Counted from the first letter of the stretch, positions 6,091 to 54,522 are shown. The stretch is DNA of 64,000 nucleotides from Octopus vulgaris (GCA_951406725.2 OX597820.1:60574001-60638000); one strand, 5' to 3'. The notes: generated by a model from the letters alone, not told the origin. Numbers and translations are program-made.

Positions 6091-7000
6091 TTTATTTAAT
6101 TATTTATTCATTTAACAATTTGTTGTTGTTTTTGTAGGAAAATGCCCCCAGCCAATATCTGTAACACCGGAGGCGGCAGAGTGTGCTTGCGCAGAGCGGC
6201 TGCGAGTCGAACTTTCGACATTTCATACGCACACCACGTCACACGCGCGTGCTAGGTGTTACAGTTAGAAGAATAGCAGGCAAAGGATAGCGAGGTTGTA
6301 ATATCTCCAGATCTGCGGGTGACATACAAACCCAACACTGACGATACGTGTGTGATGGGCAGGTACTTATTATCGACATTGCATGCCACCGGCAGAATTC
6401 TTTCTCAGATGCAACTATAAGATAAATTACGGAGTTGTATTTAAAAATATATATGTATCAAAATAAAGTTTCTTTGGATATCTTCCTCCTACTGTATTCT
6501 CGATTTCTCTGGTTTCGTAATCTGTGTAACTGTGGTGTGGGTGTGTGTTTGTGTGTGTGTGTGTTTGTGTATGTGTGTGTCTGTGCGTGTGAGTGTGTGC
6601 GTGTGAGTGTGTGTGCATGTAATACACACACTTATGTGTGTGTGTGTGTGTATATATATATATATATAAATATTAATATATGTATATGTATCTGAGTATA
6701 TGTATGTTTGTGTTTGTGCGCGTGTGTGTATATATATATATATATATATATATATAAATTAAATTAGAGATAAAACCACTATTAGGCAAATCAAACAGTG
6801 AAAAACATAAGCCAAAATATAAAAATAAAAATAATTAATATAATTTACAAAATATATAAAATATAAAATTTTAAATTTAAATTATTTAAATTTTAAATTA
6901 TTAATTTATATTTATATTTATATTTAAAATTAAAAAAAATTTTTTTTTAAATTATATATAACTATCAAAAAGTATTAAAAAGTTTATTATAAGATAAGTA

Positions 7001-7101
7001 AAACCACTACGTACGTTTCATGGCCATAACCTAATTCGAATTACAATAATTTAAATTCAATTATAAATTCAAATTATGGTTATAGTCAATCTTCAGGTTA
7101 A
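7001..7101 (-). ncRNA. Type I hammerhead ribozyme-like motif with long stem II
   Basis: Minus strand: CUGAAGA (7096-7090), 70-nt hairpin (TGACTATAACC/GGTTATGGCCA; TAATTTGAATT/AATTCGAATTA), GAAA, palindromic CGUACG, then UA. Stem I pairing is weak. Confidence 0.55.
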
Positions 7102-7329
7102 TGATAATAGTTAAATAAATAAGCAAATATATTTAAACAATATTATTTAAGAAATAAATAAAATAATAATTTATTATAAAATAAAATGTATTATCAAATT
7201 AGAAACTTTAATGATTATGATTATGTGATACAATCCAATTATAATGTTAAATATTAATTTTTAAGGTAAGATAGATAGAAAATGCATTTATCTATATAAT
7301 ATGGCTTTAAAAAAGAATATATATATTCT

Positions 7330-7925
7330 CTTTTACGCTTTACTCTTTTACTTGTTTCAGTCATTTGACTGTGGCCTTTAGTCGAGCAAATCGACCCCGG
7401 GACTTATTGTTCGTAAGTCTAGTACTTACTCTATCGGTCTCTTTTACTGAACCTCTAAGTTACGGGTACGTAAACACACCAGCATCGGTTGTCAAGCGAT
7501 GTTGGGGGGACAAATACAGGCACACAAACATATACACACACATAATATATATACATATATACGACGGGCTTCTTTCAGTTTCCGTCTACCAAATCAACTT
7601 ATAATGCTTTTGACGGCCAGAGGCTATAGTAGATGACACTATGTGAGTGGATTTGGTAGACAGAAACTGAAAGAAGCCCGTTATATATATATATATATAT
7701 ATATATATGGATATATACGTATGTGTATGTATATGTTTGTGTGTCTGTGTTTGATAACTGATGCTGGTGTGTTTACGTCCCCGTAACTTAGCAGTTCGGC
7801 AAGAGAGACCGATAGACTAAGTACTAGGCTTACAAGGAAGTCCTGGGGTCGACCTATTCGACTGAAGGCGATGCTCCATCATGGCTGCAGTCACATGACT
7901 GAAACAAATAAAAGAATAAAAGGAT
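7330..7925. mobile_element. Two head-truncated SINE A copies fused as an inverted pair
   Basis: 7330-7640 is minus orientation and 7642-7925 plus orientation, directly abutting. Confidence 0.85.
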
Positions 7926-7959
7926 ATATTTGACACCAACTCATAATATCCCGTTATTT

Positions 7960-8245
7960 GTATTTGTATTTGTGTATAATTTCTCCGTTTTTTTCCTGTC
8001 CTTGTTTTTGGATATACTTACTGCTTTCTTCCAAGGAACCTAATGCTCTTACCTTAGTTTTTCCTTGGGGCTGGCCAGATTGGAGCAATCTTGAGTATAA
8101 CCAGTCGAAATTGCAAAGATAATCTGGAACTCGAATGACGAAAGAAAACTCCGAATGACCCGTCCTTGTTTTTTCTTATCCCCTTTTTGTATCGTCTGCC
8201 TGGATGTTTTGCGTTCTTGTCCCACTTTTTGTATTCTTGTGTGTG
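7960..8245. repeat. (TA)n-associated interspersed repeat, family X
   Basis: Similar to 51245-51500 (opposite strand) and 54381-54520: CCTTGGGRCTGGCCAGATYGGAGCAATCT...GAAATTGC...CGTTCTTGTCCCA. Confidence 0.7.
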
Positions 8246-8527
8246 TGTGTGTATATACATACATGCATATATATATATATATATATATATATATATATAT
8301 ATATATATGCATGTATGTATATATATGTGTTGCTATATATATATATATATATATACATATATATATATGTATATGTATATATATGTGTTGCCATATATAT
8401 ATATATATGTATATATATATCTATATATATACATATACACACATATATATACATATACATGTATATATATATACATATGTATATATGTGTGTGTGTGTGT
8501 ATGTATATACACACACACACTTATTAA

Positions 8528-8563
8528 TGTCTGACCAACGGGAACGTGAAACTCTGAGTAACA
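8528..8563 (+). ncRNA. Minimal type I hammerhead motif with mutated core (probably inactive)
   Basis: tgt-CUGACCA-acg(ggaa)cgt-GAAA-CUC(u)GAG-UA-aca. Stems I, II and III pair; G8 is replaced by C. Confidence 0.6.
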
Positions 8564-51837: not shown

Positions 51838-52376
51838 TTTTGTTATGGCGATAACCAAGTAGAACAGATGGTCGTTAAATTTTTCCCAACCGATCAATGG
51901 ACTGATTGAGTAAAATCAATCAATAACGAACTTATAATGACTATCAGAAGCAACTGCAAATCAAATTTACAACAATAAAATATATGCAATAACCATTATT
52001 TATTCCTTGTCTTGTATATCACATCCAGTAAAAGACCATTTAAATGGGAATACAACATATGACTGTCCAGCTCCTTCTTTTGTAGAACAACTTGCAGAAA
52101 TGTTTTGGTTATGACGATGAAATTTTCATGCCGTACATTAGACCACCCACTCCATCAAATCGACGTTGCTTGAAGAGGCGCACGGTGTAATTGCAGAACA
52201 ATTTGAGGCGAAGTATTTTGCTCAAGAACCCAACATACCACTCGGTTTAGGAATTGAAACCACGATCTCGCGTGTAACACCCTAACCACTAGGCCATCCG
52301 TCCTCATTATATATATATATATATATATATATATATATATATATATATATATATATATATATATATATATATATAT

Positions 52377-52866
52377 GGATATATAAATGTCTTCCTGGGG
52401 TTAAAAATAACAGTAACACCGTCCTCTATAGGACCACCGTATTTAGTTGGCAAATATATTTTACGATTCCGTGCTCTTACTGTTTTGCTCTCGCTTGGAG
52501 ATATAATGTAACTTATCTCTCTCTTTACGAGATCAGCGACAGCGTGTCGCTAGAAAAAAGATATAGCATTTTGTGAATGGAATGAGTTCTTCACCCTTAG
52601 CCAGTGATTAACACACACTGAAGACGGGTAAACACTCAGAAACCTGGGTCTGTGAGTATCACGTAAGGCTAGAGATGGGAGCGATGACCTCCCTCACAAA
52701 CACTAATCGAACACAGACTGAATGTCGTTGGCCAGCCGGAGGAGATGTCTTCCTGGGGCTAAAAACAACAGTAACACCGTCCTCTATAGGACCGCCTCAT
52801 TTAGTTGTCAAATATATTTTACGATTCCAAACTGTTACAGTTTATCTCTTACTCGGAAATTTAATA
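52377..52866 (+). mobile_element. (TA)n-flanked element with ~120-bp imperfect direct repeats (period 358 bp) and a central hammerhead
   Basis: ATGTCTTCCTGGGG...CAGTAACACCGTCCTCTATAGGACC...CAAATATATTTTACGATTCC at 52387 and 52745. Confidence 0.75.
52611..52657 (+). ncRNA. Minimal type I hammerhead motif
   Basis: acacaca-CUGAAGA-c gggt(aaac)actc a-GAAA-CC(ug)GG-UC-tgtgagt; GUC cleavage triplet. Confidence 0.72.
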
Positions 52867-53232
52867 TATATATACATATATATATATATATATATATATA
52901 TATATATATATTTATAATTTCTATGTATGTATATATGTATGTATGTATGTATATGTATGTATGTATGTATGTATGTATGTATGTATGTATGTATGTATGT
53001 ATGTATATATATATATATATATATATATATATACATACATATACATATATATACATATATACATACATACATACATACATACATACATATATATATATAT
53101 ATATATATATATATATATATATATATATATATGTATATATATATATATATATATATATATATATGTAGGTCCCGGGTTGAGTCGGGGTTAACCACAGTAA
53201 ATAAGGTACTCAATACATAGCAGAGTAAATTA

Positions 53233-53364
53233 ATTTATTATATAGAAGGAGCTTCTACAGGACTAGAACTGTTTCATTCAGAAGAAATCATCAGGAAGCT
53301 TCCTGATGATTTCTTTTCAATGAAACAGTTCTAGTCCTGTAGAAGCTCCTTCTATATGATAAAT
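53233..53364. ncRNA. 132-bp near-perfect palindrome encoding a type I hammerhead on each strand
   Basis: Centre AAG|CTT at 53298/53299. Plus strand: agcttc-CUGAUGA-tttcttttcaat-GAAA-CAG(ttctagtc)CUGU-A-gaagct. The minus arm gives the same motif with stem II ttc(ttct)gaa. Confidence 0.78.
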
Positions 53365-53489
53365 ATATATATATATATATATATATGCCACATATATATG
53401 GCGGTGCCATATATATATGGCGGTGCCCCAGCATGGCCACAGCTCATAAGCTGAAACTAGAATCAATCAATCATATATATATATATAAA

Positions 53490-54330
53490 TATAGAGATAA
53501 AAATCCCAAATTTCACATATTCCTTTTCTACCAATGTAAAGACAGAATCTCTACACAAGAAAGAATCAACAAGGAGAATCTTTTTATTGAAAATTTGCAA
53601 ACACGTCTTAATATGCAAACTCCACGGTGACTATACTCCTTTTTCTAGCATCCGATCTGACAAAAAATTGATATAAGCATCCTGTTTGACAAAAAATCCA
53701 TTATTCCAATTAAAGAGCATAAAATCCACAGAATTGTCTCCCCTTACTCACAGGAAATGGATAACTCCTACCCCATTTCCTGTTTGGACACACAATCACC
53801 CCACCCATTCAAAATATACACTACATTTAAATACATGCATCCTAATCCTCCAAAGAAGTTTTTCCAAGGACTATTATTGAACTCTAAAAACATAAAGACT
53901 CTACTGTATACTTATTTATTAATTTTTGTATATATGTATTAATATTTTTTTGAAAAAAGCATTGTAAATTTCTTTTTTCCCCTTCCTTTAAAAAAAATTG
54001 TTTTCCCCTTCCAAATCTAGAAAATTTGCCTTGCAATGAAAGCTGGTATGATTTATTATTTTTTCTTTTTAAATTTTTCATGGACCCATTTTTATTAAAA
54101 TTTACTTTCAATATAGCATTCTGCCTTATTATAATTTTTCTCTCCTATCATTTGTCCACGTGCAGTTAACACAAGCCCACCATTTACTGACTTATATGTG
54201 TGTGTGTGGTTTTATAGTCAAGTTTGACTGCTATTTTCAGCGTGGTGGTATCTCTTAGGTACCCTAAATTATGATTTAAAAAAATTATTACCTTTGAAAG
54301 GTTTTTTCATTCCCATGCTGGCCACTTATA
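53490..54330 (+). mobile_element. Penelope-like element 3' fragment (GIY-YIG C-terminus plus downstream region) between (TA)n tracts
   Basis: KNPKFHIFLFYQCKDRISTQERINKENLFIENLQTRLN resembles the F.IFPFY...R..KE..FI....P.LN end of Penelope endonucleases. Confidence 0.65.
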
Positions 54331-54380
54331 TATATATATATATATATATATATATATATAGGATATATATATATATATAT

Positions 54381-54522
54381 CAAGATTAATCAGCCGAAAT
54401 TACTACGATGATCCGGTTCTTGACTGAAGACTGAGGGTTTCGAATGTCCTGTCCGTATTTATTGTGTCGTCTTCTAAGAGTTATACGTTCTTGTCCATGT
54501 TGTATTTTTCTACATACCTTAA
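54381..54522. repeat. (TA)n-flanked fragment of family X
   Basis: CAAGATTAATCAGCCGAAATT matches the reverse complement of ~51363-51383. Confidence 0.75.

Follow-up and report, generated by a model that had tools for sequence, protein, structure and literature searches.

Hammerhead-bearing islands in a 64,000-nt stretch of the Octopus vulgaris genome (GCA_951406725.2 OX597820.1:60574001-60638000; here "the window", with positions counted from its first base) invite comparison with two described systems, the Penelope-like elements (PLEs) and the non-LTR (long terminal repeat) retrozymes. The minimal hammerhead ribozymes reported from PLEs (PMC4209133) are of type I, have a palindromic helix III for which a dimer model has been put forward, and are highly diverse within a genome; they are mostly single motifs from truncated PLEs, with opposite-strand pairs among them, and their consensus has one 5′ bulge, a G10.1-C11.1 pair and little or no helix III. 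The supplement of PMC8557442 gives 27 Hydra-clade PLE families, 26 preferring (TA)n, including Hydra-1_Obim of Octopus bimaculoides; two octopus Naiads likewise prefer (TA)n. Most rows of its File S2 have a 4-bp palindromic stem III with a loop of 1-2 nt, and partial tandems, adjacent inverted 5′-truncated copies and one-sided tails are given as PLE signatures. Non-LTR retrozymes (PMC7229834; Li, Clavereau and Pollet 2026, bioRxiv 10.64898/2026.07.22.740005) are regarded by Li et al. as non-autonomous PLE derivatives; their mobilization by PLEs via a circular template has been proposed, and copying of more than one unit from circles is a proposal of Cervera and de la Pena. For cephalopods, 235 hammerhead matches are reported from the giant squid genome (PMC6962438); no description of an octopus or cephalopod retrozyme was found in the literature searched, Repbase, Dfam and subscription papers being outside its scope.

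A sequence-only reading had picked out six islands in the window as ribozyme-carrying, non-autonomous retroelements targeted to TA microsatellites. We read them, with a probability of roughly 0.8, as dead insertions by PLE enzymes into (TA)n: five would be short 3′ ends (pseudo-LTR pieces, two of them head-to-head inversions) of several PLE or PLE-derived families, and one consists of 1.33 copies of a 358-nt unit, itself a likely non-LTR retrozyme. The islands, labelled h1 to h6, are made up as follows.

6757 to 7316, minus strand: h1, GC 14%, its 3′ end adjoining (TA)14; decayed type I hammerhead at 7006-7098
Core from 7096, minus strand: h1 hammerhead; stem II is long and stem III a perfect palindrome of 8 nt, the cut being predicted after 7008
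8521 to 8672, plus strand: h2, between (CA)n runs; hammerhead at 8528-8563 with a broken core
24045 to 24278, plus strand: h3, its 3′ end adjoining (TA)18; hammerhead at 24180-24240
51658 to 51850, minus strand: h4, its 3′ end adjoining a long (TA)n; hammerhead at 51714-51837
51850 to 52010, plus strand: inverted copy of h4, 5′-truncated and decayed, without a CUGANGA box
52387 to 52505, plus strand: h5, 5′-truncated upstream copy of the 358-nt unit's 3′ end, 119 nt, 85% identical
52506 to 52863, plus strand: h5, full 358-nt unit, non-coding, GC 43%, its 3′ end merging into (TA)n
52612 to 52656, plus strand: h5 hammerhead, core from 52618, C.A beneath a 4-bp stem II; predicted cut after C52650
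53164 to 53298, minus strand: minus arm of h6, an element 3′ end truncated just upstream of the hammerhead at 53250-53300 and tailed by 80 nt that end in (TA)n
53299 to 53362, plus strand: plus arm of h6, an inverted copy with a second hammerhead at 53297-53347, ending in (TA)n

Both strands of the whole window were scanned with a strict descriptor, consisting of a CUGANGA core with stems I, II and III of at least 3 bp each, and the counts were compared with dinucleotide shuffles, either global or local over 200 nt (n = 100). Four loci were returned (24180-24240 plus, 51714-51837 minus, 52614-52654 plus and 53250-53300 minus) against shuffle means of 0.07 (global) and 0.04 (local), and none of the 100 shuffles reached four under either control. 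A descriptor with a 4-bp stem III of 8-11 nt (n = 150 shuffles) gave four matches with an exact core against 0.047, and four against 0.16 when one core mismatch was allowed, which lets in 8531 plus; in neither case did any of the 150 shuffles reach four. Loosening the stems to 2 bp gave seven matches against 0.5-0.6, the gains being 7006-7098 minus, 53297-53347 plus and 13369, which is unrelated to the others and not close to TA; with one core mismatch there were seven against 1.7-1.9, the gains being 8528-8563 plus together with 44499 and 49521. The extra matches at 13369, 44499 and 49521 occur at about chance frequency. All descriptors were chosen after the motifs were known, and the counts are therefore somewhat flattered relative to the shuffles. 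The hammerhead motifs in the window are real, four loci being well formed and two decayed; they lie at all six places where they had been reported, at a frequency that is not that of shuffled sequence.

Descriptors for U3-A8 cores and for hammerheads lacking helix III had no match in the window. Half motifs, in which GAAA is followed by a palindrome, number 10 in the window against a shuffle mean of 3.3, a count equalled by 1 of 100 shuffles; the five extra ones among them were ruled out as hammerheads, as they have no 5′ core. Rfam gave no hammerhead among the matches listed for the whole window (150 of 295), only microsatellite-driven microRNA matches, and nothing for two islands searched separately. 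BLAST and nhmmer found no match between islands, which bears out the earlier statement that they are mutually unrelated in sequence.

The same reading had ascribed to the islands CUGANGA cores with paired stems, and this stands for h3 to h6. The core CUGANGA...GAAA...UH is present at five of the six loci (h1, h3, h4, h5 and twice in h6); that of h2 reads CUGACCA, where the change of G8 to C makes the C3-G8 pair impossible. Stems I to III have at least 3 bp in h2, h3, h4, h5 and the minus arm of h6, and are reduced to 2 bp in stem II of the h6 plus arm and in stem I of h1 (2 contiguous bp only). Stem I has 5 bp in both h3, where it can be extended, and h4, and the stem II domain of h4 measures 95 nt. 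The canonical G10.1-C11.1 is absent as first stem II pair from all six loci. The position is occupied by U.U at 7096 and in both copies near 53.3 kb, by A.G at 51832, by C.A at 52618 and by G-U or a bulge at 24185, so that the non-canonical first pair claimed earlier is found everywhere except at 8531, which has A-U. These variants have published counterparts: U10.1-U11.1 was already given by Perreault 2011 (PMC3088659), by our own count T.T lies beneath stem II in 14 of the 26 Hydra rows in File S2 of PMC8557442, and C.A is present there in PLE-X1_cBra.

A palindromic stem III had also been claimed, and five motifs do have a self-complementary A15.1-U16.1 segment of 8-9 nt; the sixth, h6, has instead an 8-nt loop III. 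Stem III comprises 4 bp and a 1-nt loop in h3, a palindrome of 8 nt in h4 and a self-complementary 8 nt including two G-U in h5. The self-complementary segments alone have a computed hairpin energy of 0 kcal/mol and form self-duplexes of -7.9 to -11.1 kcal/mol; to judge from sequence, the stem III design is dimer-dependent, as in the metazoan type I motifs of PMC4209133. Every locus has at most one same-strand hammerhead, and no locus in the window could therefore free a monomer unaided. The likeness to the minimal PLE hammerheads covers the type I fold, the palindromic helix III with its dimer model, the mostly single motifs, the opposite-strand pairs and the high diversity within a genome; the window motifs differ from their consensus in a helix III of 4 bp and in carrying one more base on each side of stem II.

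Most of what can be said of a family comes from h5. The island at 52387-52863 contains 1.33 copies of the 358-nt unit, head-to-tail and without an open reading frame (ORF), the repeats being 85% identical. In size, non-coding state, GC content (43%) and type I hammerhead the unit fits the limits for retrozymes (150-400 nt, GC below 45%). The share of its words found in sequencing runs of organisms A, B and C is 0.22-0.36 (0.22 in B and C), no run reaching half; organism E shows small shares only, and no RNA run was listed as containing the words. Contigs were aligned on the unit at 80% likeness for the DNA runs of organisms A and D, which yielded 2605 and 1640 contigs respectively, none of which covers an entire unit. 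In 8 of the 12 junction rows listed (of 16), the end of the unit joins its start via a short TA-rich tract of only 2-3 repeats; five of these rows come from run X1, two from X6 and one from X15, seven of them being in DNA runs. It follows that the unit is tandem elsewhere, that no ORF lies between its copies and that long TA is not part of it. The window locus itself has one hammerhead, and so does not contain two consecutive units each with its own. Two runs guessed to be RNA have 117 and 123 contigs on the unit, in a format that permits no inference on expression, and pattern scans for the family gave no loci in viral contigs and none in metagenome contigs. The segment 52734-52770 within the unit has a summed contig depth far above the rest, most of it in organism D, and could also belong to a different repeat of very high abundance.

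Variation in the unit was read from 40 of 131 variant rows. Eight of these 40 fall inside the hammerhead, at N7 (one), loop II (two), stem II (two), the centre of stem III (two) and stem I (one), and no core base is changed in any of the 40. The stem II variants turn G-C into G-U and G-U into G-C, so that the pair is kept or improved, and the stem I variant completes the stem. Two sub-families emerge from loose-end consensus lines, one in X6 where stem II is changed at two positions (agreement 0.56), the other in X15 where two changes in stem III leave the palindrome intact (agreement 0.78); both double changes are those of consensus lines and not of single copies. The many contigs, the head-to-tail junctions and the concentration of variation, in the rows read, at free or pair-keeping positions together make the unit retrozyme-like, and it is probably a non-LTR retrozyme. 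With such elements it shares a non-coding tandem unit, GC content, a type I hammerhead and co-occurring PLEs, its length lying within the 350-390 bp of mussel retrozyme units; it differs in the single hammerhead at the locus. The word "microsatellite" does not occur in PMC7229834. Within the unit, a short TA-rich tract 213 nt downstream of the C52650 cut is where the h5 insertion stops, and the insertion exceeds one unit in length; both point to a circle or an uncut multimer, rather than a cut linear monomer, as its template. From this single locus we infer a circular or multimeric template.

That the islands are non-autonomous elements, as had been proposed, is supported for 52387-52863 only; the other five are single-copy within the window, and they could equally well be 5′-truncated or inverted 3′ ends of autonomous PLEs. 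Two of them are inversions. The segment 51658-52010 is arranged head-to-head with its second arm decayed, and 53164-53362 is a 96% palindrome whose arms start just upstream of the core and of which only one arm has the 80-nt tail, its motif pair being one sequence and its mirror copy. Islands and Hydra-clade PLEs have in common the (TA)n preference, a type I hammerhead that lies near the 3′ end and whose stem III is a palindrome of 4 bp, an extra pair beneath stem II and 5′-truncated inverted copies. Stem III of h3 is identical to that of Hydra-2_aMil and Penelope-16_HM, and stems I and III of h2 are nearly equal to those of Hydra-2_aMil; when six short island terms were compared with the supplement of PMC8557442, there was one match, in stem III only. 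The islands differ in having no attached ORF, in lacking loop III (h1, h4 and h5) or having one of 8 nt (h6), and in stem II domains of 70-95 nt (h1 and h4), and none equals Hydra-1_Obim by its hammerhead sequence in that supplement. The membership of the islands in the PLE-type type I hammerheads is, as far as comparison of motifs goes, good, that in a named clade only tentative.

All six islands might instead be independent non-autonomous retrozyme families. In keeping with this, a six-frame motif search of the window found no coding remnant upstream of any island hammerhead, h5 is a non-coding tandem unit, and PLE pseudo-LTRs (pLTRs) and retrozymes are related according to Li et al. However, h2, h3 and h6 begin only 4-140 nt upstream of the motif, like truncated PLE 3′ ends, and share the hammerhead architecture of autonomous Hydra-clade PLEs, with no tandem seen. 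We consider this explanation unlikely for the set as a whole.

Another possibility is that the 358-nt unit was born once from a PLE end and has since spread as DNA, by minisatellite amplification, unequal crossing-over or Helitron-like rolling circle, with the ribozyme as a passenger. Local tandem amplification from a pLTR is discussed by Li et al., and the head-to-tail junctions were found in DNA runs. The window copy, however, is dispersed and 5′-truncated, has TA on both sides and comprises 1.33 units, and the sub-families differ by changes that preserve pairing, which suggests that the RNA structure is under selection. Spread as DNA is accordingly improbable.

The islands had been described as bounded by TA, and five of the six do end directly in (TA)n at their 3′ side, h2 being set in (CA)n. 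A (TA) run of at least six repeats lies within 300 bp of all six loci, against 0.247 of the window, which supports a TA preference. In the 260 nt that follow the predicted cut downstream, at the island 3′ end, there is a (TA) run at five of six loci against a baseline of 0.128 (p of about 2e-4, or about 2e-3 if the loci are counted as three independent clusters); the distance is 22-252 nt in these five, and in h1 and h5, at 226-252 nt, it exceeds the 40-200 nt taken for the hammerhead of Hydra-clade pseudo-LTRs, with which the islands otherwise agree. Three of the loci are clustered within 2 kb, and of 47 high-copy SINE-like (short interspersed nuclear element) segments 21 also lie within 300 bp of (TA)6; the TA bias is therefore real but not peculiar to the hammerhead islands. 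The clustering, the nearness of other repeats and the density of TA runs, which have 25% of the window within 300 bp of them, would suit an origin with no targeting of (TA)n at all, in which the runs grew from TA-rich tails of the elements or both gather in gene-poor regions. Such an origin is quite unlikely, given that the unit occurs in tandem junctions with a tract of only 2-3 repeats, that h5 and h6 are flanked on both sides by long TA, and that TA preference is on record for Hydra, Naiad and Neptune PLEs (PMC8557442). That so short a motif was matched by chance in AT-rich DNA, as the Rfam negatives, the one or two chance matches of loose descriptors and the imperfections of h1 and h2 might suggest, is very improbable in view of the shuffle results (0/100 and 0/150), the family variation of the 358-nt unit and the near-identity of the h2 and h3 stems with published PLE hammerheads, and is largely refuted for h3 to h6.

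Insertion by PLE enzymes could have proceeded as follows. A source locus of tandem units would be transcribed, and two hammerheads would pair by their self-complementary stem III and then cut; the palindromes are present, and cleavage would be expected from PMC4209133 and PMC7229834. The 358-nt monomer may be ligated into a circle. The GIY-YIG endonuclease of a PLE would nick (TA)n and its reverse transcriptase (RT) would prime there, as may be read from the 3′ ends that adjoin TA. Early termination, fold-back or template switch would then produce the 5′-truncated and inverted copies whose structures are seen in the window, and the inserted copies would subsequently decay.

The enzyme source might be sought among coding remnants, which had been announced for the window and of which one was found.

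44637 to 46931, minus strand: decayed autonomous PLE, Neptune/Nematis-like, that comprises RT, thumb, Cys linker and, at the C terminus, an endonuclease of GIY-YIG type

Its reading frame is broken by stops and frameshifts. It is 51-68% identical to residues 88-795 of the Octopus vulgaris protein P0002, whose neighbours in Atlas are RVT_1 + HTH_animal + GIY-YIG proteins; the protein that best matches a decayed retroelement of the window is a hypothetical one of Octopus vulgaris (67% over 132 aa). Pfam gave a weak RVT_1 match only, on the homologue, and had none for the endonuclease piece, with which a homologue search also found nothing. A CX2-5CxxC linker upstream of the endonuclease is read in P0002 and partly decayed in the window copy; the Cys linker and C-terminal endonuclease suggest Neptune or Nematis, PLEs that likewise have RT, thumb, Cys linker plus, at the C terminus, GIY-YIG with internal cysteines, and for Neptune a TA bias is noted in PMC8557442. 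The remnant differs from these in being decayed and in lacking an intact 3′ hammerhead: a half core with one mismatch, next to the stop codon at its 3′ end, was rejected as unproven. A second CUGAAGA lies at 46995, some 60 nt upstream of the part that aligns. The segment 21450-21930 was rejected as a second remnant, having no match; the surrounding TA-bounded 21297-21967 has a coding-like look in two frames, also with no protein match. Loose patterns for Hydra-clade protein motifs had no match in six frames of the window, where the islands may be too truncated to show them. PLE machinery was once present in the genome, and 44637-46931 is only a candidate for the partner of the islands.

Several observations weigh against the reading of the islands as PLE-made insertions. 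The remnant belongs to a clade other than the Hydra clade that the islands resemble, has no intact hammerhead and shares no sequence with them, and no autonomous partner is tied to them by sequence. Family data come from one of the six islands; there, conservation of the core is read from 40/131 variant rows only, and the changes at the centre of stem III fit plain CpG decay equally well. The minimum free energy folds of the monomers fail to adopt the hammerhead core, so that folding lends no independent support; minimal PLE motifs are described as poor cleavers in vitro, and of nine predicted Xenopus dimers one cleaved (Li et al.). To the nearness of SINE-like segments to TA must be added that h2 ends in (CA)n, the next downstream (TA)6 being 3.1 kb off, and that no target-site duplication is readable at the islands.

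The window as a whole is rich in microsatellites (178 tandem-repeat rows), has a GC content of 30-43% and is packed with SINE-like repeats. Further TA-bounded islands, without a hammerhead, are found at 24316-24402, 43322-43587 (which resembles 53918-54192), 6096-6530 and 5887-6035; that at 6096-6530 has a lone CUGACGA (6338 plus) and a lone GAAA-palindrome half motif (6216 minus). A family of three copies (8025-8228 plus, 51247-51450 minus and 54381-54512 plus), 69-82% alike, ends in TA, CA or TG repeats and has a pLTR-like look. It contains a CUGAAGA box with GAAU, in place of GAAA, 11 nt further on, and was rejected as a hammerhead, since none of 26 predicted pairs covary and there is no stem I. 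Between h4 and its neighbouring TA run, 52060-52306 on the minus strand resembles a SINE derived from transfer RNA (tRNA), with box A/B-like segments recognized by eye; ARAGORN predicted no tRNA in the window, this sequence included. Other repeats are a 175-bp near-perfect inverted repeat at 23774-23948, similar to the hairpin of a miniature inverted-repeat transposable element, next to a CA/TA run; a SINE-like unit of 182 bp, repeated 2.6 times in tandem, at 20656-21140; and, on the minus strand, an LTR-retrotransposon remnant with an integrase core at 63525-63836 (rve, E 8e-9). Also on the minus strand, 28100-31450 and 32200-34380 are decayed non-LTR retrotransposons by (TTA)n/(ATT)n, the first with a zf-RVT match; they may be R4/Dong-like.

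The TA targeting, the hammerhead architecture and an octopus example are already published in PMC8557442, and only the 358-nt octopus family seems to be undescribed. Rfam misses these motifs, and the main value of the present analysis lies in annotation; as a rough figure, this one TA-rich window suggests that the genome has a PLE-type hammerhead about every 10-15 kb. The 358-nt family is a useful lead, with many diverged copies under several octopus-type labels, and the position of insertion ends relative to the cut site in its copies bears on whether PLE hammerheads make circular templates. It is conceivable, if rather doubtful, that octopuses have a large and diverse superfamily of 358-nt retrozymes, still expressed as abundant circular RNA and copied by TA-targeting Penelope enzymes, with the RT priming at the internal UA tract 213 nt from the cut. 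If true, this would give direct support for a circular template and would extend retrozyme circles to the cephalopods.

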